A stretch of DNA of 64,000 nt from an uncultured cyanobacterium (GTDB lineage Bacteria > Cyanobacteriota > Cyanobacteriia > Cyanobacteriales > Microcystaceae): the NCBI GenBank assembly GCA_963807635.1, contig CAWEDJ010000031.1, forward strand, positions 1-64,000, read 5' to 3'. The position numbers and the translations under genes were made by a program. Below are positions 14,082 through 60,455 of the stretch, in pieces. The stretch's first letter is position 1. The number at the start of each line of letters is the position of its first letter. Under the pieces are notes generated by a model. That model saw only the letters and a list, made by a program, of their open reading frames with translations. It was not told the DNA's origin and did no database searches.

Positions 14082-15943
14082 ATGAAAAAACTCCTATTCA
14101 TTGTTTTATTTATTGTTGGAATCTGGCTGACTGTTGGCTATTTTATAGAGACCAAAGGATTAGCGAATAAGGGAAAATTTGATTCTATTATTATTAATTT
14201 TGATAACGACTTACCCACTGAAAATATTAGTCAAGAATTGGCGATCGTTTCTCAATCGACGAAACAAAATCCCAGCTTAAATAGCATTTTTTCCATTGAT
14301 CAACACCTTTATACCGTAAAAGGAGATAAATCTCTCTTACATAAACTCCGCACTTCCTCGATTAAAAAATATACCGAATACATTGAACCTAATTATATTT
14401 ATAGTGCCTTAGAAACCGCCAATGATCCCGATTACAGCAAACAGTGGAATTTTCGCAGTATTAATGTCGAAAAAGCCTGGGACAATAATCGCGGTGAAGG
14501 CATAACCGTTGCCGTTATCGACACAGGGGTGTCACGGGTTCCTGATTTACGGGATACGGATTTTGTAGAAGGGTACGATTTTGTTAATGATCGCATTGAT
14601 GCCAGTGATGATAATGGGCATGGAACCCATGTAGCAGGGACGATCGCCCAATCGACCAATAATAACTACGGCGTGGCGGGGATTGCCTATCGGGCCAAAA
14701 TTATGCCCTTAAAGGTGTTATCGGCGGGTGGTGGCGGAACGGTTTCTGATATTGCCGAAGCCATTCGTTTTGCGGCGGATCACGGGGCCAGTGTGGTGAA
14801 CCTTAGTTTGGGCGGCGGGGGAGAAAGTACCGTTCTCAAGGAGGCGATCGACTATGCCTACAGCAAAGGAGTCGCGATCGTGGCGGCGGCAGGGAACGAA
14901 AATCAAAATTCAGCTTCCTACCCAGGGCGTTATCCCAAGGTCATTAGTGTGGCAGCTTTGGATGCAACGGGAAATAAAGCTCCCTATTCTAATTTTGGGG
15001 CTGGGGTTGATATTTCCGCTCCAGGAGGAAGTGAACAGGGCAAAGAGGGAAAAATTCTCCAAGAAACCCTAGATCCCACCACGAAAAAACCTATTTTAAT
15101 CGGTTTTCAAGGAACCAGCATGGCGGCTCCCCATGTGGCAGGAACGGTGGCATTGATTCAATCTTCCCAACTTCAGGTTGCCAAACAGGAAGCGGCTAAA
15201 AATCCTAACGCTAAAATCAAAGCCGAAGACCTCAAAGCAACGGATGTATCCAGTCCCGCCGAAATTTTAGAGATTCTCAAGGAATCTTCCCGAAAAGTGC
15301 AGGATGACAGCTTTAATTATTACGGAGCAGGTCAATTGAATGCAGGAGAAGCTGTAACCTTAGCTGTTCAAGGAAAACTCAGCTTTAAGGATTTCTTCCG
15401 TTGGTTACGGGATAATGGTTACTTAAACCCGATTTTCTGGTTCGATGGAGCGCGATCGCCATATTACCGAAAATTTTAATGATCGTCGGTTCCTACCTGT
15501 TGGCGTTCTTATTGCGAGTCTATGTTCCCCTCCAATGGGGCGCACCCTTAAATTGGGGCTTGATTTTCGGCAGTTCGGGCTTATTTTTCCTACAGGGTTT
15601 TTATCTCTTCGATTTACCCCGGTGGCCTTTCCGAGTCATGGGTAGTTCGTTTCCTGAACTGGGCAATTCTGTCCAGGGTAGTCATTTGTTAAATCCCTTT
15701 TTTGCGAGTGTCTTGATCCCGTTAGGATTCCTTCTGCTTTTATTAGGAAGTCGTGCAGGAAAAAGCTTTGCCGTTGGTATTACCCTCGGTGTTGCGTCCT
15801 ATCTCACTGTTTCTGCTATTTTCAATCCCAATCTTTGGTTATTGGGGGCGGGTACGGTTTCCCAAGTCTTTTTAGGAGTCAATGCTCTATTTTGTATTTT
15901 TCTAGCTTGGTTAGCCACTAAAGGAGAGCAACGATTGTTATGA
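14082..15943 (+). CDS. S8 subtilase with C-terminal membrane domain (apparent frameshift near 15450)
   Basis: Catalytic triad motifs VIDTG, HGTHVAG, GTSMAAPHVAG; hydrophobic tail continues in the next frame. Confidence 0.9.
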
Positions 15944-16491: not shown

Positions 16492-16711
16492 GAATTTTAA
16501 GATGCGATCGCCTTCCATGAACTGAAATACTAAAGCGCGATCGCCTTACATGAACGCAATGAGAAAACGCGATCATTTTTATGAAATCAAAATCTAAAGC
16601 GCGATCACCTTCACATGAACTGGATTCTAAACGCGCTCGTCTTACATGAACGCAATGAGAAAACGCGATCATCTTACATAAACTGAAATTCTAAAACGCG
16701 ATCGCCTTTAC

Positions 16712-17059
16712 CCCGCGTTCCGCAGGTTCCAAAGAACTTTTAAACAATTTTAAAATCCTTACAGGAGAAGGGTTTTGCGAATTACTGTCTTATTCACGAG
16801 CTTGTACTAAAACGAAAAAAGGATTGTCGTTACACTGAATCAAGAAAATGTCTTTTTATTGATGATCAATATTTTCTTTTTGTTTGATGAGAAAATTAAC
16901 AGTAGAGCGAAATATTTTTACCACAAATGCCTTCAAAGCCTTGTCAAATAAGGAACATAGTTTTTCAAAAGTCTTGCCTAATCAAGAAATTAATCTACGG
17001 GAAGAAAAAGTAGTACAAATGTATTATCTCGTTTTTTCAGTCAACCTGCGGAATGTGAG
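16712..17059. mobile_element. ~350-bp MITE, copy A
   Basis: TIR CCCGCGTTCCGCAGGTT...AACCTGCGGAATGTGAG; nearly identical to 18502-18852. Confidence 0.85.
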
Positions 17060-17238
17060 TTGTAATGCACAAACTCATTCGGATTGTTTACGGGGTTCTC
17101 AAGTTAGGGAAATCGTTTGACCAGACCAAGTTGGCTCTTCGTAACGTTGTTTTAGCGGAGGAAACTGATTTTTAGCCTGTTTCCCCTTGACACTTAACAC
17201 AGTATCTACGGCTACTGAATTTGCAGCTATTGGATTAA

Positions 17239-17338: not shown

Positions 17339-17766
17339 ATGGCATACAACAAATTGGTAGCAACAGTAGTTACAAAGTCCGTAGCTATGGCGATCGGAGC
17401 AGTCTGTCTGAACTGGGCAAATATCGCGGGGGCTGCACCACTGCTAGATGTTAGCGGCTCTTGGAAGATTATCGGTAACCAAAGCGCTGGGGTGCTGAAA
17501 GTTACGCAAAATGCATCTACACTGCCTTGTAAACCCATTAGTGGAACGATTTATAATACTAACCCAGTCGTCGGCTATTACTGTCCGGCCACAGGACGAC
17601 TAGCCTTCACCAGGCAAATCCTTGGAAGTTCCGCCGCTCAGGTGTGGATCGGTAACGTCTCTGATGTGATTCGCGAACCGAACCGGATGGGCGGCACCTT
17701 CCACGCAGTGAATACGGGTGCAGGTTCCGGGTATTGGGCGAGTATCATTTTCAAGGGGAGAAATAA
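17339..17766 (+). CDS. Small secreted beta-rich hypothetical protein (C-terminus probably VLGEYHFQGEK* after a frameshift; the ORF track ends at 17848)
   Basis: AGGAG RBS, signal peptide ending AGA-A, two Cys in the mature part. Confidence 0.65.
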
Positions 17767-18004
17767 CCCTGTCTTTACGAATACGCGATTGCTCATCAGA
17801 GAAACTGGGTACAAACCCCGTCCTTTAGCGATAGCGGGTATTGTCTAGCTAGAAGCTATAAATATGGTGATTTTAAAACAATAGTAATAGTATTTCCATG
17901 CAAAGATATCAATCCCTAAATTCTGAGAGCGATCGCACTAATAACAACGCCCATAACTCAAACCATAAAAATGACTATTAATCTTTCCACAAGACTGTAA
18001 CTCA

Positions 18005-18501
18005 TTAAAACTCATTAAACGCAACCTCTAACGCCTCCAACCAAACCCTCGCACTCGGACGCTTAGAAGGATTGAAATGACCATCATTAAAACACAGCAA
18101 AAAAGACCGTTGAAGCTCAGGATGAATGATATCCAAAGGAATCGTATTATTACTCGGCTGAATTAAATTATTCGGTTCATAGGGCCCAAAACCGCGACGA
18201 ATTAACTCTACTTGCTCAGGCATATCACCCGAACCCTGCCAACTTCCCCGAAACGGTGGCCCAGCAAGCAAAAGATAATAGATTACTACGTCCAATCGAA
18301 AACGATCATGAACCGCAGATTGAGTAATCGAGTCAATATTCTTACCAATTAACTCAGACGGCGTAAACCCCTCCGAAGCAACCAAACACCGATAAACTTT
18401 GTTGTGAATAGGATCAACAACCTGAAAAAAATCCGTATCAATGATCGTCGGTAAAGCGCGGCTATTTACCAGAATATTTTGTAACTTAATATCCCCTAAA
18501 A
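18005..18501 (-). pseudogene. 3' fragment of a Ser/Thr kinase-like gene, cut by MITE copy B
   Basis: LGDIKLQNILV...IIDTDFFQV...SEGFTPSEL...HDRFRL...RPSARVW; the reading frame starts at the MITE boundary. Confidence 0.8.
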
Positions 18502-18852
18502 CCCACGTTCCGCAGGTTCCAAAGAACCTTTAAACAATTTGCAAAATCCTTACAGGACAAAGATTTTGCAAATTACTGTCTTGTTCACGAGCTTGTACTA
18601 AAACGAAAAAAAGGCTTGTCGTTACACTGAATCAAGAAAATGTCTTTTTACTGATGATCAATATTTTCTTTTTGCTTGATGAGAAAATTAACAGTAGAGC
18701 GAAATATTTTTACCACAAATGCCTTCAAAGCCTTGTCAAATAAGTAACATAGTTTTTTCAAGAGTCTTGCCTAATCAAGAAATTAATCTACGGGAAGAAA
18801 AAGTAGTACAAATGTATTATCTCGTTTGTTCAGTCAACCTGCGGAATGTGGG
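18502..18852. mobile_element. ~350-bp MITE, copy B (same orientation as copy A)
   Basis: TIR CCCACGTTCCGCAGGTT...AACCTGCGGAATGTGGG. Confidence 0.85.
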
Positions 18853-19107
18853 CTTTACATCAATAAAGACACTAAAACGCGATCGCCTTACATAAACTGA
18901 ATTCTTAAACGCGATGAGCCTAAAATTGAGATTTGATCAGAACAAAAAGTTCGTACCCGATATTTTAAGGGATTTTTCTGGGTATGTTCTAGTTACAGAG
19001 TGTAGTTTAATAGCAATTATTAATTTATTGGATTTTATTAAGTTTTGTCAAAAAATATTGATTTATATTAAGTTCTTTATTTCCGTCGGCTTGCCGATCG
19101 TCCTGCC

Positions 19108-21258
19108 ATGAACTTACTCTCACCTAAATCTTCCGTGTTTTCTCGATCGGTTTCCCCGAAATTAATTCGGTCTAAACTTTTCCCTGTTGCGATCATCTTA
19201 AGTATCGCTAGTTTTCCCAAAGTCGCCTCTGCGGTCACCCTGACCTATGCCTATGTCGATAGCATTGTTACGGGTTGGGACAATTGGAGTTGGGGAACCA
19301 CCTATATCAATGATACTGTGGTCAAAAAATCAGGAACTGCCTCTGCCAAAGTGACCATTACCGATGCGTGGGCAGGATTTAGTTTGAGCCAAAGCACCAC
19401 AACAAATAATCTGAATACTTTATCGGCGATTTCTTTTGATATTAATCCAGGTGCGGCGACGAATGTGACGAAAGTAGCCAACCTTCGCGTGTCTTTGCAA
19501 AATGGAACTGGCCAAGGCTCCTCAGTCCCCATCGCCTCCTACGCATCTCCTGCCTTAACTGCCAATACCTGGTCAACTGTAACTATTCCCATTAGTCTGC
19601 TTGCTGGAACGTTGACAGCCCTCAATCGTTTGAATTTTCAGGATGGATGGGGACAAGGTAACGTTGTTTTTAATCTGGATAATGTGGGACTGGTTCCTCT
19701 CGAAGTCACAAGCGGCTGTAGTTCCTTGGTCGTGGATTCGGGAATCGCTAACGGTGGTGTCAGCATCAATGGCTTTTTGAATGATCAGTACAAATGGTAT
19801 GACAGTAGTTGTCGCCTACGGACTGCGGCTCTAGCCCGTAACGATACCAGTAAAGGCGGTAATGCCAAACAGTTTACCTATGTCTTAGCAAATGGAACAA
19901 CTAGGATTGTTAATCCAGGAGCCAGTGCAGGGGGTTTTGGTTATATCGTCGCTCACCTGAGTAATCCTTCCTTTGCCAGTGCCTATGGCGCAAGTGATTC
20001 TCCCCTCGGTTCCGGTAACAGTGCAACGACCACTAAGCTCTTTGTGGGAAGCAATCATGCTATTCATGAATACACGCTCAACTATGTCCGCTATGGCCTG
20101 ACTCAAGCGGCAATTAATAGTGGCTTTGCTCCCTGGACACAAATCAATTCCACTAATAAATCCAATGTAACGGCCTATAATATGCCCGTTCGCATTCAAT
20201 GGTTATTTGCAACGGGACGAAATTATCCTATTTGGTCAGTGACCTTTGATTTATCTGCCGCCCCTAATCATGCTGTTGATTCAGATTTTCGCGCTCCCTA
20301 TGGAGATATGAAAATTGAAGGGGGGGATGGCTCGGCTGTGGTGGGGGGTGTCGGTTGGGGAGATAAATATAAGTTTCTCTCGGCGGGGAGTCCCTTCACC
20401 ATGAATAATGACTGGGATTATTCCCAACTGAACCCAGGTGCGCCCTATAGCTATCTTTGGACGGCTACGGGCGATGCGGAAATGGGACTAGCGGGGACTC
20501 AACTGACAGCAAAACAAAATGCAGGGGGTTATAACAATTACCAAGCTCCTATTTGGCGAGGAAAAACGAGTTTAAATATGGGAACGCTTTGTCTGAATGA
20601 CGGGGGAGCGGGGCCTGCTTATAATCACAAAACGCCTTGTACTAGTCACTGGGCCTATCAGCTTATTCAATATTCCCTTGCAAACGCCACCCAGACCACC
20701 AGTAATAAACGTTTAGCCTGGGGAGCAGATTGGGGATCTTTGGGGAATAGCTCTTTCACAAGTTCCAATGGTTATACTGTCAGTGGCTATCCCAGGGTCA
20801 GTTACAGTGTTCATATTGTGCTAGACCCCCACACGGGTAATCCGACCCAGGCGATCGCGTTGCAAGCAAAAACGGCGAGTGTCACTACTTTGACCGCCAG
20901 CGTGGGAACCGTCAGAACCAGTGGTATTGCAGGAGTCGGACGCACGGACACGGTCACCTATAGTCCCGCAGGCTTCAGCCCTATTTTTGGAACATGGGAA
21001 GTGAATGCGGCGGCTACGACGAATAACCTGACGTTATCCTTTGCTGTGCCTAGTACCGCTCCTTCTACCTTGGATAGTCCGATTATTGTGGTCAACAATT
21101 ATACTCGTACTACAGCACCAACCCAGGTATTACTTAATGGCACGGTATTAGTCGCGAATAGTGACTATTTTGTAAGTCTTCGTCCTGATCAATCCCAACT
21201 CTGGATTACGCTAAATAAAAAATTAGCGGGGACAAATAGTTTTAGTATTGTTAACTAA
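19108..21258 (+). CDS. Large secreted Ser/Thr/Gly/Asn-rich protein with N-terminal carbohydrate-binding-like module
   Basis: Signal peptide ending ASA-V; GWDNWSW...WSTVTIP...FNLDNV resembles a CBM-like beta-sandwich; the rest is unrecognised. Confidence 0.7.
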   Translation: MNLLSPKSSVFSRSVSPKLIRSKLFPVAIILSIASFPKVASAVTLTYAYVDSIVTGWDNWSWGTTYINDTVVKKSGTASAKVTITDAWAGFSLSQSTTTNNLNTLSAISFDINPGAATNVTKVANLRVSLQNGTGQGSSVPIASYASPALTANTWSTVTIPISLLAGTLTALNRLNFQDGWGQGNVVFNLDNVGLVPLEVTSGCSSLVVDSGIANGGVSINGFLNDQYKWYDSSCRLRTAALARNDTSKGGNAKQFTYVLANGTTRIVNPGASAGGFGYIVAHLSNPSFASAYGASDSPLGSGNSATTTKLFVGSNHAIHEYTLNYVRYGLTQAAINSGFAPWTQINSTNKSNVTAYNMPVRIQWLFATGRNYPIWSVTFDLSAAPNHAVDSDFRAPYGDMKIEGGDGSAVVGGVGWGDKYKFLSAGSPFTMNNDWDYSQLNPGAPYSYLWTATGDAEMGLAGTQLTAKQNAGGYNNYQAPIWRGKTSLNMGTLCLNDGGAGPAYNHKTPCTSHWAYQLIQYSLANATQTTSNKRLAWGADWGSLGNSSFTSSNGYTVSGYPRVSYSVHIVLDPHTGNPTQAIALQAKTASVTTLTASVGTVRTSGIAGVGRTDTVTYSPAGFSPIFGTWEVNAAATTNNLTLSFAVPSTAPSTLDSPIIVVNNYTRTTAPTQVLLNGTVLVANSDYFVSLRPDQSQLWITLNKKLAGTNSFSIVN

Positions 21259-21381: not shown

Positions 21382-21993
21382 ATGTATAGAAAAGAATCCA
21401 ATCCTAAAAAATTTCTCCCATTCTCAACTGGTATAATACAATTCCTATTGACATTATGCCAAAAGACGTTTAATTCCTACTTTTTGCGTCAATTTATTCC
21501 TTTTTTGCTGGTTTGCTCAGTATTTTTTAGTATTATCTTGCTCAAAAGTCCCAGCCTATTATTCTGTCTTTTAGTTAGTATCGTAACAACAGCAATGATT
21601 CAGTATTTTGGTAGGCAATTGGGCTGTTCAACGCGATCGCTAATTCCCTTACAAATGTTAGTAACGGTTGGGATATTTAGTGGATTTTGGTTAGACTATT
21701 TTGCCGATCCTGCCCAGGGACAATTTTTTAAAAAAGCTGAAGATTTTTTTCAAAATACTTTGAGTCAAGGAGCGGGTACAACCAATAATACCCAAGCCCC
21801 CATCGGTTTAGTGTTTAATATATTGCGAGCTATCTATTTACTTTATATTGCAGGTTCTTTAGTAAGTGTGATTAACGCAGTTCGTAAAGATGAGGAATGG
21901 CAAAGTATGGCTAGAACCCCCTTGTTGGTCGTTATTGCTGTCACAATGGCGGATGTGCTAACAGGTTTTATTATTGGTGACACAGGTAAATAA
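21382..21993 (+). CDS. VirB2/TrbC pilin-like membrane protein
   Basis: Long hydrophobic leader, PAQG-QFF processing-like site, two C-terminal hydrophobic helices; lies upstream of the virB3/virB4-like genes. Confidence 0.6.
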   Translation: MYRKESNPKKFLPFSTGIIQFLLTLCQKTFNSYFLRQFIPFLLVCSVFFSIILLKSPSLLFCLLVSIVTTAMIQYFGRQLGCSTRSLIPLQMLVTVGIFSGFWLDYFADPAQGQFFKKAEDFFQNTLSQGAGTTNNTQAPIGLVFNILRAIYLLYIAGSLVSVINAVRKDEEWQSMARTPLLVVIAVTMADVLTGFIIGDTGK

Positions 21994-22019
21994 TTGACCC
22001 AAAATATTTCAAATTTATC

Positions 22020-22385
22020 ATGACTAAAGAAAGAGAAAATCAATTTCGTCCCGTGAATCAAATCTTAGGCACTCAGCCATCCCTTGGCCCCATTCCTGCG
22101 GATCAAATTATTCCTTGGACAGTCATTATTTTAACCGCTTATTTTGTGATTAATGGTATTTTTGGGAGTTTATTCGCCGATGATTTTCAAAAATGGTTAT
22201 GGATAGCTCTAATTGCCGCTTGGGGAATAGCCACCTGGTGGATTCTAACGGGCGGAAAAAGTTGGCGTTTTTTAGGTAAATTTATTGCAGTCCCTACTTG
22301 GACAAGGGGTTTTGCCCGTTATCAAAGCTGGCTAGAAATGCACTATGAAGCAAAAAATTGGCAAACAAAACATCGAAAAAAATAA
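22020..22385 (+). CDS. VirB3-like small membrane protein
   Basis: FRPVNQILGTQPSLGPIP plus two TMs; overlaps the start of the virB4-like gene. Confidence 0.6.
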   Translation: MTKERENQFRPVNQILGTQPSLGPIPADQIIPWTVIILTAYFVINGIFGSLFADDFQKWLWIALIAAWGIATWWILTGGKSWRFLGKFIAVPTWTRGFARYQSWLEMHYEAKNWQTKHRKK

Positions 22386-25083
22386 AACAAGATTAACTCC
22401 CTTTGAAGATGCCTTACATTTAGCAACAATGCTACAAATTTCTCTCAATAGTAGGGAAATTGGAGCATATTTATTAAGCAAGGGAACTCAAAAGGATCGA
22501 TTTTGTTTTGTTTTCGGTTTTGACTGTCAAGGTATTCATACAACCCTAACATTTGAGCAAATTGAAACAATTTTTGATAATCTAGAAGCAGGATTAAAAG
22601 ATATTCCCCTCGGCGAAAAAATGACACTTCATTTAGGATCTTTTCGCTCAGATAAATCCCGTCAAAAACAATTGTCATCTTTAATTAAACAAGCCTCCTC
22701 CCAAGAAGTTAAATATCTATTAATGGCTGAAAGAGCTAGGGCAAAGCAATTAACGAAGACGGGAATCCGTAAGCCTAAATTTTTTAGAATTTATGTCACT
22801 TATACCATTGAACCTGACACCAATAATACGGATGATTGGATTGAAAGTTTATTAGCAAAAACTGAAATTTGGTGGTCAAAATTTAAAGGAGAACTAACCG
22901 ATTTAGAAAATCAGCGTTTGGAAACGATTATTACAAATGCTTACAAACAAGGCTTTAGCCGTTGGGAACAAGTTCTATCGAATTTGATGGGATTAAATGT
23001 CAAACCTTTAACCGCCGTAGAATTATGGAGTGATATTTGGCGACGATTCAATCATACCGTACCGATTGATATTCCCCAATTAATTACCTTAGATGAAAAA
23101 GGATTGCATGAACAAGTTAATTCAGATTTAAGCAGTAGTAAATTGCTTCTAGAAAATATCCATAGTGCTACCTTGCTGTTGGAATCCGAGGTTCCTGTTG
23201 CCGATCGCCGTTGGGTTCATTTGAATAATCATTATATTGGCGTACTAACTTTTTTAGAAAAACCTGGTGGCTGCACCAATAAATCAGCCCAATTACGGTA
23301 TTTATGGGAAGTATTAGCTAGGGAAAACGTCGTTGATACAGAAATTTTTTGTGAGCTTACTGCCGCGAATCCTACTTTAGTCAAAACTGCCTTACAACGG
23401 GTATTAAAACAATCGAATATAACTGCATTAATGGCTCAAGAAAAAAATAAAACGATTGATGTTAGTGCTGAATTAAAGTTAAAAAAATCCATCGCAGCCC
23501 AAGAGCAATTATATGAAGGAGCCGTCCCCATTTATAACAGCATTGCAATCCTAGTTCATCGTCACCGCTTAGAACAATTAGAGCAAGCAACCCGATATAT
23601 TGAGAGCTGTTTTCAACGTCCCGCCCAGGTCATTCGAGAAACCGAATATGCCTGGAAAATTTGGCTCCAAACCTTACCGATTGTCTGGGAAGGATTGTTA
23701 GCCAAACCCTTTAATCGTCGTCATTTATATCTAACCAGTGAAGTCCCAGGATTAATGCCCTTAGTGTTTACAAAAACTGATGATCAAGAAGGGTTTGAAT
23801 TAATTGCCGAAGAAGGGGGTAGTCCTGTTCATATTGATTTATTTAATCAACACAAAAATTTGGCCCTATTTGCGACAACTCGCGCAGGGAAATCAGTTTT
23901 AGTCTCAGGGATTTTAACCCAAGCCTTAGCACACGAAATTCCTATTGTAGCCTTAGATTTTCCTAAATCTGATGGGACTTCTACCTTCACTGACTATACG
24001 GAATTTATGGGGAAAAACGGAGCCTATTTTGATATTTCTAAACAGTCTAATAACTTGTTTGAACAACCCGATTTACACTTATTAAATCCTGAGCAACAAC
24101 AGGATCGTTTACTCGATTATACCGCTTTTTTAGAGTCGGCTTTAATCACAATGGTTTTAGGGTCATCTAATGATAATAAAATGTTATCCCAAACGGTGCG
24201 ATCGCTATTAAATTTAGCGTTAACTGCTTTTTTTGCTGATAATCAGATTAAACACCGTTATCAAGAAGCAATGCTTCAGGGATTTGGCAGTATTGCCTGG
24301 CAAAAAACGCCTACTTTGCAAGATTTTTTACCCTTTTGTTCCCCCGAACATTTATTATTAGAATCCGTTGGCGGCCAAGTAGAAGAAGCCCTCAATTATA
24401 TTCAATTACGCCTACGTTTTTGGCTTTCTAGTCGCGTGGGAAAAGCGATTTCCGCCCCTTCCAGTTTTCCGACCGATGCCCCTTTGTTGGTCTTTGCCCT
24501 GAGAAATCTTGCAGATAATGAAGATGCGGCGATTCTGTCTTTGAGTGCCTATTCTGCCGCCCTACGTCGCGCCCTCAGCCATCCTGCTTCTATTTTCTTT
24601 ATTGATGAAGCTCCCATTCTCTTTGAATTTGACCAAATTGCTGATTTAGTCGGAAGAATCTGTGCTAACGGAGCAAAAGCAGGTATTAGGGTTATTCTCT
24701 CGGCTCAAGACCCCGATACGATCGCCAAATCCAAAGCGGCTTCTAAAATTTTACAGAATTTGACCACTCGCTTAATTGGACGGATTCAGCCTGTGGCAGT
24801 GGACAGTTTTGTTGATATTTTGAAATATCCCCGCGAAATTATTGCTCGTAACGCGACCGAGAACTTTTTTCCTCGTAAAGAGGGGATTTATAGTCAATGG
24901 CTACTGGATGATAATGGTCTTTATACTTTTTGTCGCTATTATCCTGGTTACGAACAATTAGCCGTAGTTGCTAATAATCCCAAGGAACAAACGGCTCGTC
25001 AAAAAGCGATGCAACATTATCAGGATAAATACGAAGCAATTTCCGCTTTTGCCCGTCAATTAGTGGCGAGTTTGCGGGGTTAA
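22345..25083 (+). CDS. virB4: VirB4-like type IV secretion ATPase, cyanobacterial type
   Basis: 912 aa; Walker A-like ATTRAGKS, Walker B IFFIDEAP, GAKAGIRVILSAQ motif. Confidence 0.85.
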   Translation: MKQKIGKQNIEKNKTRLTPFEDALHLATMLQISLNSREIGAYLLSKGTQKDRFCFVFGFDCQGIHTTLTFEQIETIFDNLEAGLKDIPLGEKMTLHLGSFRSDKSRQKQLSSLIKQASSQEVKYLLMAERARAKQLTKTGIRKPKFFRIYVTYTIEPDTNNTDDWIESLLAKTEIWWSKFKGELTDLENQRLETIITNAYKQGFSRWEQVLSNLMGLNVKPLTAVELWSDIWRRFNHTVPIDIPQLITLDEKGLHEQVNSDLSSSKLLLENIHSATLLLESEVPVADRRWVHLNNHYIGVLTFLEKPGGCTNKSAQLRYLWEVLARENVVDTEIFCELTAANPTLVKTALQRVLKQSNITALMAQEKNKTIDVSAELKLKKSIAAQEQLYEGAVPIYNSIAILVHRHRLEQLEQATRYIESCFQRPAQVIRETEYAWKIWLQTLPIVWEGLLAKPFNRRHLYLTSEVPGLMPLVFTKTDDQEGFELIAEEGGSPVHIDLFNQHKNLALFATTRAGKSVLVSGILTQALAHEIPIVALDFPKSDGTSTFTDYTEFMGKNGAYFDISKQSNNLFEQPDLHLLNPEQQQDRLLDYTAFLESALITMVLGSSNDNKMLSQTVRSLLNLALTAFFADNQIKHRYQEAMLQGFGSIAWQKTPTLQDFLPFCSPEHLLLESVGGQVEEALNYIQLRLRFWLSSRVGKAISAPSSFPTDAPLLVFALRNLADNEDAAILSLSAYSAALRRALSHPASIFFIDEAPILFEFDQIADLVGRICANGAKAGIRVILSAQDPDTIAKSKAASKILQNLTTRLIGRIQPVAVDSFVDILKYPREIIARNATENFFPRKEGIYSQWLLDDNGLYTFCRYYPGYEQLAVVANNPKEQTARQKAMQHYQDKYEAISAFARQLVASLRG

Positions 25084-25118
25084 TTAAGATTATAGAAAAA
25101 TTTGATTTTAATGAATAT

Positions 25119-26699
25119 TTATAACTGGAGTAATTGATTGATATAAACTTCAACTTCCGTTCCAGCAGGTAAAAACCAAATATTAGTTCGTTGCATCATT
25201 TGCGCGATCGCCTGTTGATTCCGTTGGGCAATTTGGGGAACCACGCTACTCATTCCGCCTTCCATTACACCCGCTAAAATATTGCGTTGAGGGTTGTTAT
25301 TGCTAACAATACTGCCTGCTTGACTAGTCGTAACAACTTGGGATTCGGTTCGATTAAATAGTTCGGCGGCTTTACCCAGACCACCCAAAATAAATAGACC
25401 CGCATCCATTGAGGTTATCGAGGATACTTGATTCGGGAACTGGCTCGCAATCAATGGTTTTCCTTCAATTGCCCGAACAGTAATGGCATTTTTAGGGAGC
25501 GTTATTTCCGTAGGATTATTATTAACCGATAGGATAACTTTCTTAACATCTAGTTGTAGTAAACCCTGCTCAGAAAGAGAACGAATTTCTGCTAATAATT
25601 CAGTATTTTCAGGTAAGGCGATCGCACCATCTACGGTTTTTAACGGTTCCTGTAAACGCACAACAAAAATGTTTTTCCCTTCTTGATTGGGATCACCACT
25701 ATTGGACATCATGGTTTCTCCAAAAATAGCCGTTGCCAAGACTGCCCTGACACTATTACCCGCCGCTACAGGTTTAATACTCGGTTGTGGAACGGGGCTA
25801 GAAACGGGATTTTCTACGGTTTGCTGGGGGATAACAGGAGTTGTTGGCTGTGCAATGGGCGGACTGACCACAGGCTTAAAAACAGGAGGAGTATGGGGTT
25901 GGGGAGCCTGAACAACTTTCGGATTATTTTTGTCTAAAGTCGCTATTTTTGAGGGTATTTGCTCTTTTTTAGGCTTAATTGGTATGGATGGTTCCCTAAC
26001 AATGATGGGCGGTTGGGGAACTTTGACAACGCGCTCAACGGTGACAATGCGAGGGACATAAACCGTCTGTACGGTCGTTTGAGGTTGGGTTTGAGGCACG
26101 GAAGTGGGCGAAATCGTTCTATTTTGCCTTAAAGCTTGTTGGGCCGCTTTTATTCCCTCTGTTTGGTCTGATAGGGCTAGTTTTGTTTTTAATGACTCAA
26201 TTTCCGTTGATAAAGTGGCAGTGTCATTTTTCGTCTCTGCGGGTACTTCCGTCGCGATCGGATTGTTTGTTGGGGTTTGATGGCCACTGTTCATCATCTG
26301 AGATAAAAACGCACCTGCAACCAAAATAATCGATAAAGTTCCCATTCCTACTAAGCCTAATTTCGCAAAGGGATTAGCCGAAAGTGGTTCTTCTGTTGGG
26401 GATTCCAACGGTTGAGATGGCGATGGCATTTTTTCCCAAGATTTATCCGCTATTTCAGCGTGATCAAGGGGGTAATCTTGGGTTAATCCCACTAATTTTG
26501 CCATTTTTGATTCCCAATCAGGCTCGTCAGTATCAACAGTTTGAGGATTGATAGAAGAAAGAGAATCCGAAGAATTTTTTTGATGAATTGAATATTGAGT
26601 CATTAGAAAATACCAAAATATAGGATAATCAAAGTCTAATTCAAGAACAATCTTTTTGCTGAAGCTCACACATATTGTAAATTTCAAGCCTAGCTTCAC
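25119..26699 (-). CDS. TrbI/VirB10-like protein (real start probably ~26603, MTQYS)
   Basis: N-terminal TM, coiled coil, Pro-rich linker, then AGNSVRAVLAT...LPENTEL...WFLPAGTEVEVYIN. Confidence 0.8.
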   Translation of the reverse strand: MKLGLKFTICVSFSKKIVLELDFDYPIFWYFLMTQYSIHQKNSSDSLSSINPQTVDTDEPDWESKMAKLVGLTQDYPLDHAEIADKSWEKMPSPSQPLESPTEEPLSANPFAKLGLVGMGTLSIILVAGAFLSQMMNSGHQTPTNNPIATEVPAETKNDTATLSTEIESLKTKLALSDQTEGIKAAQQALRQNRTISPTSVPQTQPQTTVQTVYVPRIVTVERVVKVPQPPIIVREPSIPIKPKKEQIPSKIATLDKNNPKVVQAPQPHTPPVFKPVVSPPIAQPTTPVIPQQTVENPVSSPVPQPSIKPVAAGNSVRAVLATAIFGETMMSNSGDPNQEGKNIFVVRLQEPLKTVDGAIALPENTELLAEIRSLSEQGLLQLDVKKVILSVNNNPTEITLPKNAITVRAIEGKPLIASQFPNQVSSITSMDAGLFILGGLGKAAELFNRTESQVVTTSQAGSIVSNNNPQRNILAGVMEGGMSSVVPQIAQRNQQAIAQMMQRTNIWFLPAGTEVEVYINQLLQL

Positions 26700-27321
26700 C
26701 GAGGCGAAAAGTCGCTAACTGCCAAGGAAGAGGATTATCAGGCAAGGAAATAGGATTGTTTGCGATCGCCCTAACCAAAATTTGTCTATTAAAGGGAATT
26801 GACTTTCCTAACAAATCAGAACCACTAAAAATTAATTGATTAGCTCGTATCTCCACTTTCCACTCTCCGACACCAATCTTGATCGGTTGAGAAATTCTTT
26901 CGATAATCAAAACACTTTCTGTGCTTCTATTATTGGATGTAATTTGATTTTTTTGGTTTAACTTCATCATTTCTGTTTGAAACTTTGGCTTTAATCTATC
27001 CATTAACAAGGCAGAACTAATGGCTAAAATTTCATTTTGAGGTTGTTTGGACGAAAAAGTTAACATTAAAGTCATCGTTTCCCCCACAAAACGACGAATC
27101 GTTTCTGGTTGACGCTCCAAATTCGTTTCTGGATCTGCCGATATGACACGACCATCCGCTAATTCTACCAAACTTTGAGGGGCTAATTGTTGGCTCAACT
27201 GCTGTAACATTGTTTCATGAAAAAATAGTAACAATAAAATAACAAAATTTAATCCAAAGGTTCCCAGGGCAAAGAGGAATAAAATATTTTTTTTCTGATT
27301 TTCTGACTGAAATAATTTCAT
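26641..27321 (-). CDS. VirB8-like bitopic T4SS protein
   Basis: Single N-terminal TM; SLVELADG...IRRFVGETMTLM; paralog of the next gene. Confidence 0.55.
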   Translation of the reverse strand: MKLFQSENQKKNILFLFALGTFGLNFVILLLLFFHETMLQQLSQQLAPQSLVELADGRVISADPETNLERQPETIRRFVGETMTLMLTFSSKQPQNEILAISSALLMDRLKPKFQTEMMKLNQKNQITSNNRSTESVLIIERISQPIKIGVGEWKVEIRANQLIFSGSDLLGKSIPFNRQILVRAIANNPISLPDNPLPWQLATFRLGEARLEIYNMCELQQKDCS

Positions 27322-27373
27322 GTTTTATAGATCATCACATTAACTAAAATAGTTTAATACATAAAAAATAACC

Positions 27374-28198
27374 TCATTTAATAAAACTTTCACTATTCGA
27401 CGAATCTGTGCAGGAAGTTGAACGCTCTTGGGGAGCATTATTATAATTATCCATTAAACATAAATTGCGAATTTCATAAATTTCCATTTTACTCGATCGT
27501 ATCGCATAAATTGCTCCTTGCAAATCCGTCATCTTATCAGGGAGTGGATAGGAAAAATAATCCGTCGCTCGAACCAATAAATCTTTATTAAAAGGTGTAA
27601 TTATTTTACTACTATCCCCTCTTTTTCTTTGAATTAGGTCAGCAACTAAACCCACTCGCCACTGGCCTGATGCGATTTTTTCAGGTAAATCTATGCGCTT
27701 AATCATTAATTCTGCGGAGAGACCTTGTTGATCATCATTTATAAACACTTCGGGTGGTGTTATTGCCGCAATTTCCCTTAAGAAACCCCGACGAAAATCT
27801 TCCGATAAAGCAAAACTAGCAACCCAACTATTGGTCGTTACTTTATTATTTCCTCCCTGGGGGGTACTAATTAATATGCCTCGATCGCGAAGAGGGGCAA
27901 CGCGATCGCTAATCGTTTGAGGTGGTAGCAATCCTGACCAATTAAACATTAGTGTCATGGTGTTATCAACAAATTTTTTAATTGCGACTGGATCTCTTAC
28001 CAAATTATCTTGAATAACGACTTTTTTTCCATCAATTAGTTGGACAAAATTAGGAGGTTGTCTCTGGCTTAATTGACGAATTTTAATTCCCTGAACAACC
28101 AAGAACAACAATACCAAAAAATGTAATCCAAAAGCCGCGATCGCAAAAATTGTTAAAGAATTAATCGGTTGTTGTTGTTTTTCTAGTAACTTTACCAT
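27374..28198 (-). CDS. VirB8-like bitopic T4SS protein
   Basis: Single TM; NFVQLIDG...IKKFVDNTMTLMFNWSG...ALSEDFR. Confidence 0.55.
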   Translation of the reverse strand: MVKLLEKQQQPINSLTIFAIAAFGLHFLVLLFLVVQGIKIRQLSQRQPPNFVQLIDGKKVVIQDNLVRDPVAIKKFVDNTMTLMFNWSGLLPPQTISDRVAPLRDRGILISTPQGGNNKVTTNSWVASFALSEDFRRGFLREIAAITPPEVFINDDQQGLSAELMIKRIDLPEKIASGQWRVGLVADLIQRKRGDSSKIITPFNKDLLVRATDYFSYPLPDKMTDLQGAIYAIRSSKMEIYEIRNLCLMDNYNNAPQERSTSCTDSSNSESFIK

Positions 28199-29269
28199 TT
28201 ATATTTTCGTCCTCACCCAAATTGTCGTATTACTCATTGCATTAAAGACAGCAAATCCCCCTAGAGTCGCCAAGCCTAAAGCCGTAATAGGAGCTAGAAT
28301 TCCGAGAAAAATCATAAACCACATTAAATCGGGATCAGCATTGGCATTTTGTCCTGGCCCATTCATAATAACAGTTGCGGTAGAAATAGCCATAATATTA
28401 AAAGAAATCTTGGCAATGCCGATCGCCAAAAGTCCTGTTAACCAAGCAAAAATAGGTTTTCCCGTTCCAGGCAATAGTGATGCTCCGACAGCGATTGGCC
28501 CCAAAGCCGCGATTAGTAACATGGTTGCTTCTAATAAATTTTGAAAAGCATATTGTAGAGAAATAAAAAAACTTTTAATACTAGTTTGTACGGTTGATCC
28601 TAATAAAACATTAAAGGATATTTCTGATAAATTTCCTGTCCCGTAGGTGATTTGATTAACTTTATTTTCTAAGCGACTAATCCATACTTTATCTCCATAC
28701 GAATTTCGATATTCTTGCCACAGCACATTGATTTTTTCGGAGGATTTAACCAAGCATTGTGTTTGCTGATCTCCTGTTAAAGATTGACAAGGACGTAACA
28801 AAGCACCAGCAACTTCTTCTGCCACACTCATACTCAAAACTTGTTGATAATTTTGCTTGCTATCTGTTGTTATAATAACTTGTTGATTAATAGTGTTTAG
28901 AAAATTTCTTACGCCTAAAGTTAAGTTGGCTAGAGTACTTTCTTTACCCGTATTGGTTAATAATATAACGACAACAAATGGCCAAATTAAAGCAGATAAC
29001 GGGCGGCTATATTCATTCTCCATTACATCTCTGATCCACTGGAATATAAAAAAGATTAATGTACCTACGGCCAAAAAGATACCTAAATTTGTCAGCGATC
29101 GATATAAATTATTAGAGTTGTTATTCTGTAATAAATCTAGCCATTGATTATCCCAGCTTTCAGCAATACTTTGGGCGGTTGTGGTTCCACTATTAAAAAT
29201 ATTACTGATGCCTGTTTCCGATAACAGTAAAGGTAATCTATCAAATAAAATTAAAACATCATTAGTCAT
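28199..29269 (-). CDS. VirB6/TrbL-like polytopic membrane protein
   Basis: Several TMs around a periplasmic loop with a Cys pair; MLLIAALGPIAVGASLLP...FAWL. Confidence 0.7.
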   Translation of the reverse strand: MTNDVLILFDRLPLLLSETGISNIFNSGTTTAQSIAESWDNQWLDLLQNNNSNNLYRSLTNLGIFLAVGTLIFFIFQWIRDVMENEYSRPLSALIWPFVVVILLTNTGKESTLANLTLGVRNFLNTINQQVIITTDSKQNYQQVLSMSVAEEVAGALLRPCQSLTGDQQTQCLVKSSEKINVLWQEYRNSYGDKVWISRLENKVNQITYGTGNLSEISFNVLLGSTVQTSIKSFFISLQYAFQNLLEATMLLIAALGPIAVGASLLPGTGKPIFAWLTGLLAIGIAKISFNIMAISTATVIMNGPGQNANADPDLMWFMIFLGILAPITALGLATLGGFAVFNAMSNTTIWVRTKI

Positions 29270-30087
29270 TATTGGGGAATGGGCAAAAGTTGATTTTCGG
29301 TTTGATTTGCTATTTTTCTTCCTACTAAATCCATTTGAGTCGCTACTCTAAGAAGCTGGGCAGATTCGGTAGCAGTATCTAATCGGCGATCGCGGTTCGA
29401 TTCTTCAATTTGTTGAGAAATATTGGCTAAATTTAAGTTAGAGTACTGTAATGAATGATTAATTTTAATATTTTGTGCTAAAGTCTCGCCTATTATTTTA
29501 GCTTGCTCACTTTGAATCTTGATATTTTGTCGTTGCAAATCTGCTTGATTAGTATTTAATTGAGCAGTGAGCAAGGGAGTTATATTCGTCATGCTACTGA
29601 CACTTGACACAAGTTTTTCAAGCTCATTAATTAATTTATCAGATTTTTGGGAATAGGTGTCAATATTTTTGAGAGAAAGCTCAGTATTTTGTAACTTATT
29701 TTTTAAGCGAATTTGTCCATTGCTCCCCAGAATACTATTAATAGAACCCAAGGTGATGAGGCGGTTAACTTGATTAGTAATTAGTTGCGATCGCACGGCT
29801 GAATTGTTTTCAAAATTATCGGATTGGGCATTAAGAGCTAGGGACTGACGGAGGATTTGTCCCGCATCAATAGGATTGGGAAGATTTGCAATTCCCGTCG
29901 CTTTAATAATAGCAGTTTGAGTAGGAATCCCCAAAGGACTTAGGGTTTCATTAAGGGAGTTTTTCAGATAATTTTGTAAGTCAACAGAATAATATTGAAA
30001 ATCTGTCCAAACTCGTGCTAGCTGACCGAAACTGGGAAGAGCGATTAAAAAAGTCAAACCGAGAGTCAAAAAAATGATTTTTTTCAT
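29269..30087 (-). CDS. VirB5/TrbJ-like secreted helical protein
   Basis: Signal peptide, Gln/Asn-rich helices, NLNLANISQQIEESNR; translationally coupled to the virB6-like gene. Confidence 0.55.
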   Translation of the reverse strand: MKKIIFLTLGLTFLIALPSFGQLARVWTDFQYYSVDLQNYLKNSLNETLSPLGIPTQTAIIKATGIANLPNPIDAGQILRQSLALNAQSDNFENNSAVRSQLITNQVNRLITLGSINSILGSNGQIRLKNKLQNTELSLKNIDTYSQKSDKLINELEKLVSSVSSMTNITPLLTAQLNTNQADLQRQNIKIQSEQAKIIGETLAQNIKINHSLQYSNLNLANISQQIEESNRDRRLDTATESAQLLRVATQMDLVGRKIANQTENQLLPIPQ

Positions 30088-33360: not shown

Positions 33361-34604
33361 TTAATGAACCGCTTTACCAAAACCAACAGGTTTTTTCTTA
33401 GCCCGATCTTTAACCGCTAATTTTTGCATGACCTCCTCTGCCGCTCGTCCTTTATTAAAAAGATCAACGATTATTTTTAGCGGTTCATCAATGTGAGTAA
33501 AAAAGGCTTTATAACCCGCACAAAGGTAATTCAAACCAGGTTCTCCGTCGGGGGTATTAATAAAACGATGTTTGGGACATTCTCCATGACAAGCAAAACG
33601 CACCTCACAATCTAAACAATACTTTGGTAAGGTGTTTAATTTGTCCTGTCCAAACTTAAATTGGCGATCGCTACCGACCAATTCAGCCATCGAATTTTCT
33701 GTAATATTTCCTAATAAATAATCGGGTTCCACAAAATGATCACAGGAATAGAGATCACCGTTATGTTCGAGTGCAACACCAGAGCCACAAGTCGGCGAAA
33801 AAAAGCACATTCCCGTCGGCATCTTTAACCAACTTCTGACCGCCGCTTCAAAGGTTTGAACAAAGATTTTGCCCACATCTTTGCGTACCCATTCATCAAA
33901 AATCGTGATCAAAAAATTACCAAATTGTTCGGGTAAAACGGAATTTTCTGAAACCGTTGTTCCCTGTTGATAAAGGGTTCTACCATCTTCATTAATCCGT
34001 TCAATAACAGGAATAAATTGTATCCAAGTCGTTTTTACTTCATCTCGTAAGAAGCGATAAACTTCTAAAGGATGAGACGCATTAACCCGATTAACAGTAG
34101 TCAAAATATTATATTCAACCCCATGCTTTTGCAAGAGCCGTAAACCCCGCATTACCCGATCAAAAGTGGGCCACCTTTTTTATCAACTCGGTTAGCATCA
34201 TGTAATTCTCTTGGCCCATCTAAACTTAAGCCAATTAGATAATTATTCTCTTTAAAAAATTCACACCATTCATCATCTAAAAGAGTTCCATTAGTTTGTA
34301 AAGTATTTTCAAAGATTGTGCTTGGTTTACGATGTTTTTCTTGGTAGGCGATCGCCTTTCTAAAAAAATCAATACCCATTAAAGTCGGTTCTCCCCCTTG
34401 CCAAGCAACGGTTACTTCACGGGTTTTATGGGATTCAATCAGTTGACGAATATAGGTTTCTAGAACCTCATCTGTCATGCGGAATTTACTGCCAGGATAA
34501 AGCTCTTCTTTATCTAAAAAGAAACAATAGGAACAATCCAGATTACAGATCGCACCAGTGGGTTTGCTTAAAACATGAATACGGGGAGGTAGGAAATTTG
34601 TCAT
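33361..34604 (-). CDS. Anaerobic sulfatase maturase, radical SAM/SPASM (apparent frameshift near 34170)
   Basis: KPTGAICNLDCSYC, WQGGEPTL, SPASM Cys pattern YSCDHFV...CLDCEVRFACHGECPKHR...YLCAGY. Confidence 0.92.
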
Positions 34605-34765: not shown

Positions 34766-36267
34766 ATGGCAATAAAACAACCCAATATTTTAATTATCTG
34801 GGGTGACGATATTGGTCAATCCAACCTCAGTTGTTACTCTCATGGCTTGATGGGTTACAAAACCCCAAATATTGATCGCATTGCTAAAGAAGGAATGCTA
34901 TTCACCGATTCCTACGCCGAACAAAGTTGTACCGCAGGGCGATCGGCGTTTATTACAGGTCAATGCGTTTTTCGCACAGGCTTAAGCAAAGTTGGGATGC
35001 CTGGAGCCAATTTAGGAATGCGTGCTGAAGATCCGACTATCGCCGAATTACTGAAACCGATGGGTTACGCCACAGGACAATTTGGTAAAAACCATTTGGG
35101 CGATAAAGATGAAATGTTGCCCACTAATCATGGATTTGATGAGTTTTTCGGGAATCTCTATCACCTCAACGCCGAAGAAGAACCCGAACTCCGCGATTAT
35201 CCCCCCGCCGCTGATTTTCCCAATTACAGGAAAAATTTTGGCTCACGCGGTGTATTGGATTGTAAAGCGAATCCCGATGGAACCCAAACCATTGTCGATA
35301 CGGGCGCATTGACCAAAAAGCGGATGCAAACCATTGATGATGAAGTTCTAGCTAAAGCCAAGGATTTTATCGATCGCCAAGTCAAGGCTGATATTCCCTT
35401 TTTTGTCTGGTTTAATACGACCCATATGCACTTCCGCACCCATGCAAAACCTGAGAGTTTAGGGCAGTCGGGACGTTGGCAGTCGGAATACCATGATGTG
35501 ATGATTGACCATGATAAATGTGTGGGTGAATTGCTCGATTATCTCGATGCCCTCGGTATTACGGATAATACGTTTGTCATGTATAGCACTGATAACGGCC
35601 CCCACATGAATTCTTGGCCCGATGCAGGGATGACTCCTTTTCGCAGTGAAAAAAATACCAACTGGGAAGGAGCTTTTCGGGTTCCTAAATTGATTCGCTG
35701 GCCGGTGTGATTGAACCTGGCACGATCTCCAATGAAATTGTTAGTCATCTGGATTGGTTGCCGACTTTAGTGGCGATCGCGGGTGATCCCGATATTAAGG
35801 AAAAACTACTCAAGGGTCATCAAGCAGGAAATAAAACTTTTAAGGTACATCTTGATGGTTATAACCTGGTGCCTTATCTCAAAGGCGAAGTGGAAAAAAG
35901 CCCACGCTTAGAATTTTTCTACTTTAGTGATGATGGTGATTTAATGGCCCTACGTTATGACCATTGGAAGACAGTTTTCATGGAACAACGAGTAACGGGT
36001 ACTTGTCAAATCTGGGCTGAACCCTTTGTTGTATTGCGAGTTCCCAAATTGTTTAATCTCCGCACTGATCCCTATGAACGTGCCGATATTACCTCAAATA
36101 CCTATTGGGATTGGATGTTTGATCATATTCCTTTGGTATTAGCAGCTCAACCCATCGTGGCTCAATTTATTTCAACTTTTGTAGAGTTTCCGCCGCGCCA
36201 AAAAGCGGCCAGCTTTACGGTTGATCAAGTGATGGAAAAAATTATGGACGGCATTACCAGTCACTAA
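34766..36267 (+). CDS. Arylsulfatase 1, no signal peptide (apparent frameshift near 35704)
   Basis: PNILIIWGDDIG; SCTAGR (CxAxR) formylglycine motif; GKNHLG; STDNG. Confidence 0.92.
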
Positions 36268-52176: not shown

Positions 52177-52317
52177 TCCTCATATTTATCGCTCCCTGTC
52201 TTGGTTTGACCCGCATTTAAACACTGCTTGTTATTGAATGCCTTGTCGTCATCCTGTTAAGGGGGCTTTTTATTGGCCGATTTTGCCGATATTTATTTAG
52301 CTCAATCCGAGGTAACA

Positions 52318-54833: not shown

Positions 54834-54991
54834 TGTTCTAAGCCTGTGGATCGTATTTCTGGAAGACAGTCAGTCTATTCATTGTGACGTGTTTTATCCA
54901 CAGATTCAGAACAGTACCGAAAGTATTTGGAACCTCCGGAATGGAGGTTCCAAATTTATACAGAATAGGGTTTAAAGACTAAATCCCAATA

Positions 54992-55024
54992 AGGAAAAAA
55001 CCCAGCAAGAATTTACTGGGTAAA
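54992..55024 (-). terminator. Rho-independent terminator after rpmE
   Basis: Minus strand ACCCAGTAAATTCTTGCTGGGT followed by a T run. A second hairpin TTGGAACCTCC-N5-GGAGGTTCCAA lies at ~54927-54953. Confidence 0.6.
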
Positions 55025-55048
55025 ATAAAATTCAAAGTTTTAACGGAT

Positions 55049-55284: not shown

Positions 55285-55296
55285 AGGATGTGTCCT

Positions 55297-57054: not shown

Positions 57055-57058
57055 GACC

Positions 57059-60453: not shown

Positions 60454-60455
60454 TT

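Follow-up and report, generated by a model that had tools for sequence, protein, structure and literature searches.

Type IV secretion systems (T4SSs) of the mating-pair formation class MPF_C, the least studied of the eight T4SS classes, were defined on the plasmid pCC7120alpha of Nostoc sp. PCC 7120; the gene set there continues beyond alr7210 with alr7211, alr7212, and the VirD4 coupling protein (alr7213), and a MobV relaxase (alr7199) lies upstream (Guglielmini et al. 2012, 2014; PMC3548315, PMC4027160). There were no MPF_C integrative and conjugative elements (ICEs) in the set of Cury et al., and the survey of Popin et al. was confined to plasmids. We found no description of a chromosomal cyanobacterial T4SS without a type IV coupling protein (T4CP) in the full-text literature, subscription journals and bioRxiv supplements being outside the search. 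Here, we examined a 64-kb stretch of DNA from a colonial freshwater cyanobacterium (hereafter, the window), which is the first 64 kb of a 95,031-bp contig in a metagenome-assembled genome (MAG; 4.03 Mb, 107 contigs, 93.7% complete). Eight open reading frames (ORFs) at positions 21382–30087 form a T4SS-type cluster, and the best reading of the sequences is that it belongs to a chromosomally fixed MPF_C subclade without coupling protein or relaxase; the cluster is probably a domesticated, non-conjugative T4SS derivative kept by selection. An earlier note on this DNA, made from the letters alone, had described eight open ORFs, three on the + strand against five on the − strand, with 35 bp between the stop codons, and these coordinates were reproduced when the ORFs were re-checked:

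21382–21993, + strand: VirB2/TrbC-type pilin-like protein, 203 aa, homolog of alr7204
22020–22385, + strand: VirB3-like small membrane protein, 121 aa, homolog of alr7205, with a 41-nt overlap with the start of VirB4
22345–25083, + strand: VirB4-family ATPase, 912 aa, homolog of alr7206, the sole ATPase in the cluster
25084–25118, no strand: gap of 35 bp between the convergent stop codons
25119–26699, − strand: VirB10/TrbI-like protein, 526 aa as listed, Pfam TrbI, homolog of alr7210
26641–27321, − strand: second VirB8-like paralog, 226 aa, homolog of alr7209
27374–28198, − strand: first VirB8-like paralog, 274 aa, homolog of alr7209, modelled VirB8 fold
28199–29269, − strand: VirB6-like polytopic membrane protein, 356 aa, homolog of alr7208
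29269–30087, − strand: secreted all-alpha protein, 272 aa, at the VirB5 position, homolog of alr7207

The cluster holds one-to-one homologs of alr7204–alr7210, the MPF_C model locus used as the reference set for gene-by-gene BLASTP, and the gene order within each block is the same as on pCC7120alpha. Homologs of the accessory genes (alr7204, 7205, 7207, 7208, 7209 in two copies, and 7210) were recovered at E values of 2e−8 to 3e−42. VirB4 grouped with cyanobacterial plasmid and ICE VirB4 proteins in the tree described below, and at least three class-specific accessory families, identified as BLASTP homologs, stand beside it; at least three such families adjoining VirB4 is the MPF_C assignment rule given in PMC4027160. 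Unlike pCC7120alpha, the window has no VirD4 (alr7213), alr7212, MobV, or alr7211 (VirB9-like) gene, whereas it has a duplicated VirB8-like gene, a chromosomal location, an inverted second block, and a place in a separate, short-branched clade. An orthologous set forms a nine-gene chromosomal operon in Nostocales, for example in Chlorogloeopsis fritschii PCC 6912 (L005), where it sits between PhoX/PhoD and Lnt/GyrA; its VirB4 is 79–81% and its VirB6-like protein 62–73% identical to those of the window, both VirB8 paralogs are present, and it likewise lacks a T4CP and a relaxase. The Nostocales operons keep all genes on one strand and include a 190-aa VirB9-like ninth gene, whereas the window cluster is convergent and its genome has no VirB9-like gene at all.

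The VirB4 protein of the window shared 78–82% identity with proteins annotated as “hypothetical” and encoded on multi-megabase contigs of Nostoc, Fischerella, Chlorogloeopsis, Scytonema, Nodularia, Calothrix, Woronichinia, and Snowella, and VirB4 was 71–82% identical across Nostocales chromosomes; against plasmid copies, the identity was just 52–59% for 133 of 134. The closest named relatives by VirB4 were Snowella and Merismopediaceae MAGs (98–99% identical). When 401 evenly sampled cyanobacterial genomes were surveyed, a VirB4 match was found in 56, of which 25 had a copy with at least 71% identity and the others at most 64%. These 25 carriers consisted of 23 genomes of the Nostocaceae-type family, the genome of the window (G000), and a congener (G218). 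The T4CP profile PF02534, which found a T4CP in 46 of the 401 genomes as a control, had no match in 15 of the 25 carriers, including the single-contig genomes G164 and G268, and therefore a coupling protein cannot be a general requirement of the machine. Each of the 16 fetched loci whose VirB4 was at most 64% identical came from a genome with PF02534; within the fetched stretches, tblastn showed a single VirB8-like gene in 15 (and none in L099), alr7212 in 11, and VirD4 in seven, and one of the 16 (G144) was an ICE-like chromosomal copy. The four fetched loci with VirB4 at or above 71% all had two VirB8-like genes, and neither alr7212 nor VirD4. In a VirB4 tree of 41 rows, the 24 T4CP-less rows formed one clade with a support of 100 in the SH-like approximate likelihood ratio test (SH-aLRT), on branches much shorter than those of the conjugative copies; the clade was not nested among plasmid sequences, a comparison that the earlier note had asked for. 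When 61 loci of at least 20 kb were compared, all 61 held the same eight gene families and 60 held the 190-aa VirB9-like family, and no further family was common to all. The clade is a monophyletic, slowly evolving MPF_C subclade that lost VirD4 and alr7212 and duplicated VirB8.

In the window, the parts for DNA transfer are missing. Among the 71 scanned ORFs there was no family match to a relaxase, VirD4/T4CP, VirB11-type ATPase, or integrase, as had been stated earlier for the 64 kb along with the lack of att-like repeats; the window contained no tRNA and no direct-repeat pair bracketing the cluster, and two transposase genes lie ~19 kb away, so that the features of an ICE were not found. 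In the whole MAG, tblastn gave no match for VirD4 (alr7213), alr7211, alr7212, or MobV, and profile hidden Markov models (HMMs) built from the cyanobacterial alr7211, alr7212, and VirD4 families had no match among its 22,458 six-frame ORFs. The T4CP families PF02534, PF10412, and PF12696 were also without a match in this 93.7%-complete MAG, as were the relaxase families PF01076, PF08751, and PF03389 (MobV, TrwC, and MobA/MobL types), so that tblastn, Pfam profiles, and the family HMM agreed in finding no T4CP genome-wide. The locus therefore lacks what defines a conjugative system, with no T4CP in the MAG and no relaxase linked to the MPF genes. As for two of the missing families, Peptidase_M23 was found in two of eight members of the alr7212 family, which suggests a cell-wall role, and the alr7211 family was weakly VirB9-like (TrwF, E 0.17; CagX in two of 28 members, best E 5.9e−4), in agreement with the VirB9 homolog reported for MPF_C by Guglielmini et al. 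2014 (PMC4027160).

The genes that remain are under constraint. Ratios of nonsynonymous to synonymous substitution (dN/dS) between the window and L004 ranged from 0.04 (VirB4) to 0.30 (VirB3-like) over all eight genes (dS 0.08–0.21), and the ratio for VirB4 between the window and L014 was 0.096; all eight genes are thus under purifying selection, and the relaxed selection that the earlier note wished to see checked was not observed. The setting is chromosomal, because the same contig also holds the ribosomal-protein operon that the note had reported, with SecY, Adk, and RpoA, which was located at 54979–63632 (L15, SecY, Adk, S13, S11, RpoA, L17, TruA, L13, S9, and L31). One argument of the note did not hold: it had contrasted the open ORFs of the cluster with the frequent frameshifts elsewhere, but the at least nine gene breaks in the ~55 kb of the window outside the cluster predict only ~1.4 breaks in 8.7 kb (P(0) ~0.24), so that the contrast is not significant and the unbroken cluster is, by itself, no evidence of selection.

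The identities of the individual genes were drawn mainly from comparisons within MPF_C, since a Pfam scan gave no match for seven of the eight ORFs, VirB4 included, and a protein-cluster look-up named nothing beyond “hypothetical protein.” The 912-aa ORF was 52.5% identical to alr7206 over its full length (925 columns) and matched the NCBIfam models TraC-F-type (E 4e−13) and VirB4_CagE (E 3.9e−11), both far under the curated cut-offs. It has a Walker A motif (ATTRAGKS, residues 510–517) and a Walker B motif (IFFIDE, 750–755); the [AG]xxxxGKS form of Walker A was present in all 102 VirB4 homologs examined, and a PDB sequence search with VirB4 alone gave no useful match. The 526-aa ORF was the one matched by Pfam, to TrbI (PF03743; E 6.6e−12, 46.1 bits against a cut-off of 35, residues 311–522). 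It is 28% identical to alr7210, and its transmembrane (TM) helix, following Pro-rich linker, and C-terminal TrbI domain are those of VirB10/TrbI proteins; the ATG at 26603 is more likely to be its start than the listed one.

VirB2/TrbC pilins have a long leader, a signal-peptidase site, and a mature part of ~70–95 aa with two hydrophobic helices. The 203-aa ORF was 46% identical to alr7204 across the C-terminal 100 aa, and an alignment of 32 homologs showed a variable N-terminal leader, a conserved A-x-P-A-Q-A-Q-F-F stretch, and a pair of hydrophobic helices linked by an R-K-D-E-D-W loop that hardly varies, a build that we take to be that of processed T4SS pilins. This family had no match in profile libraries and none in a PDB sequence search, and in Guglielmini et al. 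2014 (PMC4027160), profile comparison likewise did not detect a VirB2 homolog in MPF_C. The 121-aa ORF was 41% identical to alr7205 and has two hydrophobic helices in its sequence. In the distant MPF_C-like loci L096, L097, and L098 (genomes G116, G020, and G101), a VirB3-like segment is fused to VirB4 in ORFs of 1048–1083 aa, whose VirB4 is 30–35% identical; VirB3–VirB4 fusions are known. The 356-aa ORF was 27% identical to alr7208 (E 3e−42), and its VirB6-like family combines multiple hydrophobic helices with a long loop in which two Cys are invariant. Its family profile had no sequence match in the PDB, and its look-alikes in the ESM Atlas were unnamed cyanobacterial clusters, with CtnDOT_TraJ of Bacteroides at rank 5 (0.88) as a weak lead. 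The 272-aa ORF matched alr7207 at 30% identity over 135 aa. It has a signal-like segment at its N-terminus, and its structural model (mean predicted local distance difference test [pLDDT] score 77.5) was all helical; the profile of the alr7207-like family had no useful sequence match in the PDB. VirB5/TraC minor pilins have a three-helix-bundle fold with a globular appendage and are located at the pilus tip.

The two VirB8-like ORFs, of 274 and 226 aa, were 31% and 25% identical to alr7209, respectively, and 27–29% identical to each other; none of the 61 loci of at least 20 kb lacked an ortholog of the 226-aa protein, and the mean column identities of the two families were 74% and 69%. Their family profile had no sequence match in the PDB. 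The AlphaFold2 model of the 274-aa protein (mean pLDDT 80.3) consists of a helix at residues 14–44 followed by an alpha+beta domain, that is, the N-terminal TM helix and periplasmic NTF2-like domain of the VirB8 family. Its top Foldseek matches were TraM, VirB8, TrwG, CagV, DotI, and TraE, with probabilities of 0.96–1.00, target TM scores of 0.40–0.78, and a best E value of 1.6e−3, none reaching 0.001 or lower. Of the labels that had been assigned from topology, that of VirB8 accordingly gained a modelled fold, whereas that of VirB5 gained no such support, as set out below. When the two paralogs were modelled together, the interface score ipSAE was 0.82, against 0.00 for the best control, with at least 61% of contacts shared between runs and a partner pLDDT of at least 79; among solved complexes, 116 of 157 attained the mark applied to this score, as did two of 215 mismatched pairs. 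Mutual binding of the two VirB8 paralogs is thus predicted. The folds matched by the 274-aa model include those of DotI/DotJ and TraM, which are type IVB VirB8-like proteins (PDB 3wz3, 3wz4, and 3wz5). DotI and DotJ form a heterocomplex, which the predicted binding of the two paralogs recalls; in contrast to the type IVB proteins, both paralogs here are of full length, arose within MPF_C, and are ~10% identical to the solved chains.

The layout of the cluster varied between lineages, as follows:

Nostocales: 203 > 121 > 912 > 272 > 356 > 274 > 226 > 526 > VirB9-like, all on one strand
Window and L004 (98%): convergent, three genes against five, a layout in these two only
Second Snowella, L014 (82%): VirB10 and 226-aa genes upstream on the other strand, without a 274-aa ortholog in the locus
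Gloeothece PCC 7822, 879-kb secondary replicon: five-gene block ahead of the three-gene block, on one strand

The convergent arrangement, whose conservation on other cyanobacterial chromosomes the earlier note had wished to see tested, is therefore specific to the genus of the window. None of the non-Nostocales copies of the cluster (Snowella-type and Gloeothece) has a VirB9-like gene, and the VirB9-like family profile had no match in the four Snowella-type genomes (G000, G218, G401, and G402), with the control G164 positive; the description of the cluster as intact thus holds for its eight open ORFs but not for the nine-gene Nostocales set, from which the VirB9-like gene is missing. When the eight proteins were concatenated for a tree (2,829 columns), Gloeothece and Snowella fell into one clade (SH-aLRT 99.9) nested in the diversity of Nostocales, after the branches of L100/L101 and Calothrix (support 97–98). 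In approximately unbiased (AU) tests, the monophyly of Nostocales without Snowella was rejected with the concatenate (p-AU 0.024), and with VirB4 alone, a sister position of Snowella to all Nostocales was not rejected (p 0.546). The clade is carried by one of eight sampled genera in the family of the window. Taken together, the nested clade, the AU test, and the patchy presence moderately support a scenario in which the cluster left Nostocales in one horizontal transfer and afterwards lost VirB9 and was reshuffled; as the cluster probably arrived by transfer, “domesticated” would apply first of all to Nostocales.

The view of the earlier note that this is a domesticated, non-conjugative chromosomal machine is supported by the monophyly of the clade, by purifying selection, and by the absence of a T4CP here and in 15 of the 25 carriers. 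We looked for a linked relaxase or T4CP, for ICE boundaries, for a VirB4 nested among plasmid sequences, and for relaxed selection, and none of these was seen. There are, nevertheless, points that weigh against a domesticated machine. According to Guglielmini et al. (PMC3548315, PMC4027160), nothing is known experimentally about MPF_C. In Foldseek and VIA-align, the 272-aa model gave only generic helical matches and none to VirB5/TraC, and the score of the VirB8 pair may reflect mere likeness to solved VirB8 oligomers. In a lake-water RNA library, contigs 90–97% alike covered 25 of 30 bins of the cluster, but these contigs were assembled, came from a related strain, and may include DNA, and so are no proof of transcription.

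Further points on the same side concern DNA transfer, which would persist if plasmids or small mobilisable elements supplied the T4CP and relaxase in trans. A T4CP could have escaped the present data, because the genome is a MAG in 107 contigs and plasmids are often lost in binning, and in 10 of the 25 carriers a T4CP is present elsewhere in the genome, mostly accompanied by another MPF_C set of the conjugative kind. The single relaxase in the MAG (PF03432, 121 bits) is a 371-aa ORF on the unlinked 6,767-bp contig C94 (504–1619 of locus L083); the GC content of this contig is lower (37%), and it may be a small mobilisable plasmid. Against such mobilisation stand the carriers without a PF02534 match, single-contig genomes among them, a profile that did detect the T4CP in 16 of 16 genomes of the conjugative-type loci; the position of the T4CP, where present, beside its own complete MPF_C set; and the lack of PF10412 and PF12696 matches in the genome of the window. 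We consider this explanation very unlikely.

The missing VirB9-like gene, the absence of the 274-aa VirB8 paralog from L014, and the shuffled gene order also count against a maintained machine, and could mark the start of decay. If so, the cluster in this lineage would be a horizontally acquired, functionless remnant, consistent with VirB9 loss in all four Snowella-type genomes and Gloeothece, with three gene orders in three lineages, and with the patchy phyletic spread outside Nostocales. The dN/dS values of 0.04–0.30, the 74–82% identity of VirB4 to its Nostocales orthologs with Walker A intact, and the eight ORFs that are open in L004 as well as in the window make decay improbable, and like mobilisation in trans, it is a minor rival of a cluster kept by selection.

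As to what a domesticated machine would do, VirB3, VirB6, VirB10, and a hetero-oligomeric pair of VirB8 proteins, together with VirB4 as the single ATPase, would form an envelope-spanning scaffold, with which VirB4 would draw the VirB2-type pilin out of the inner membrane and assemble it into a polymer. Pilus assembly by such a scaffold does not require VirD4 in conjugative VirB/F-type systems. Because this part of the machine works there without VirD4, we tentatively favour, by analogy, a surface filament or contact apparatus serving adhesion, colony cohesion, or cell–cell contact. ComB-like DNA uptake and Ptl-like protein export rank next.

Helicobacter pylori's ComB system, which is mentioned as an import system in PMC4027160, offers one of these analogies, in which a T4SS run in reverse, taking DNA in through the outer membrane for natural transformation, would need neither T4CP nor relaxase. 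Like the present cluster, ComB lacks a T4CP, a relaxase, and VirB11, and its comB2–4 and comB6–10 genes form separate blocks, which the division of B2–B3–B4 from the B6–B10 genes here recalls; the content of B2, B3, B4, B6, B8, and B10 without D4 or B11 would also fit, as would the apparent movement of the cluster itself between orders. The likeness in content is partial, ComB having VirB7 and VirB9, neither of which is in the cluster, and there is no specific sequence relationship or affinity beyond the shared T4SS families, the closest relatives being conjugative MPF_C systems. Cyanobacterial transformation, moreover, relies on type IV pili and Com proteins. DNA uptake is accordingly an unlikely function.

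An exporter resembling Ptl of Bordetella pertussis, which is the precedent for protein export without a coupling protein, would take a substrate delivered to the periplasm by Sec/Tat across the outer membrane. A candidate of this kind could be seen in the 716-aa protein with a signal peptide that is encoded directly upstream of the pilin gene and kept with the cluster in L003 and L004. This protein was not found beside the Nostocales or Gloeothece clusters, and only nine T4SS families are common to the 61 loci, so that no candidate substrate is kept with the cluster as such. Ptl also has VirB11 (PtlH), VirB7, VirB9, and a linked substrate operon, none of which is in the window, and in this lineage the VirB9-like outer-membrane part is missing. 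Export by analogy with Ptl would therefore be as doubtful a function as DNA uptake, and a surface filament or contact apparatus is the reading that we favour.

A chromosomal, slowly evolving, and mostly T4CP-free clade would be a clear exaptation of a conjugation machine outside Proteobacteria. To the picture of a chromosomal machine derived from an MPF_C T4SS and independent of a T4CP, the present analysis adds a subclade in Chroococcales, a marker of the clade in the form of the VirB8 duplication, and a count of T4CPs across whole genomes. With the window, the module is seen to have probably crossed into unicellular/colonial Chroococcales, where reshuffling into two blocks is tolerated and purifying selection persists without a VirB9-like gene, which helps to narrow down the essential parts. 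It is conceivable, though somewhat doubtful, that heterocyst-forming cyanobacteria and, through transfer, some colonial unicellular ones keep a single-ATPase, T4CP-free T4SS organelle that represents a new functional class; such an organelle might, with similar reserve, be a surface filament, a contact apparatus, or a DNA/protein conduit for the host's own use. If this were true, the Snowella/Gloeothece form would work without a VirB9 ring, a core architecture unseen in solved T4SSs. The clade has genetically tractable carriers in Nostoc punctiforme, Chlorogloeopsis fritschii, and Gloeothece PCC 7822.

Regulatory signals were also sought. A consensus scan found no terminator-like hairpin in the 35-bp gap at 25084–25118, promoter and terminator scans gave sites no more numerous than in shuffled sequences, and the patterns of the NtcA box and the hormogonium J-box had no consistent presence upstream of the pilin gene. 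In Nostocales loci (within L005–L082), a tandem TGTTAAAT-like motif, with two copies 3–7 nt apart, occurs ~70–120 nt upstream of the pilin gene and is a candidate operator; it was present in 29 of 74 Nostocales loci, against seven hits in the remaining 3.05 Mb of locus sequence (both strands), a count that is not independent, as the pattern was derived from the same related sequences. The motif is not present in the window.

The gene breaks outside the cluster affect SecY, which is in three pieces, and genes for a radical-SAM/SPASM protein, an S8 peptidase/DUF5942 protein, two sulfatases, a metallophosphatase, an epimerase, and CobW, each in two. Because SecY is essential and yet split in three, the breaks are most likely MAG assembly or sequencing errors and not pseudogenes. 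The stretches of adjacent ORF pieces are:

61657–62987, − strand: split gene
33361–34604, − strand: split gene
14082–15943, + strand: split gene
34766–36267, + strand: split gene
39184–41608, + strand: split gene
50183–50910, − strand: split gene
52273–53317, + strand: split gene
3641–4676, − strand: split gene

The 716-aa protein mentioned above is encoded at 19108–21258 (+ strand). Its composition is rich in Ser, Thr, Asn, and Gly, a signal-like segment stands at its N-terminus, and its only domain match, to a glycan-binding domain, was sub-threshold. In L003 and L004, it is 92–96% identical with a dN/dS of 0.12–0.16, and it may be a surface protein or a substrate particular to this lineage. 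A direct repeat of ~360 nt (16701–17064 and 18491–18857; 85–97% identical, ~1.79 kb spacing) lies just upstream of the region of the cluster and flanks two small ORFs without a family match at 17339–17848 (+ strand) and 18005–18385 (− strand), and short HIP1-rich repeats lie nearby. The two transposase genes ~19 kb from the cluster lie at the beginning of the window and encode a Mutator-family transposase (931–2235, + strand) and a DUF772 transposase fragment (2479–2979, − strand). Finally, a 653-aa protein with NACHT and NCH2 domains is encoded at 10403–12364 (+ strand), adjoining a cytochrome b561-like gene, and may be an NLR-like defence or signalling gene.

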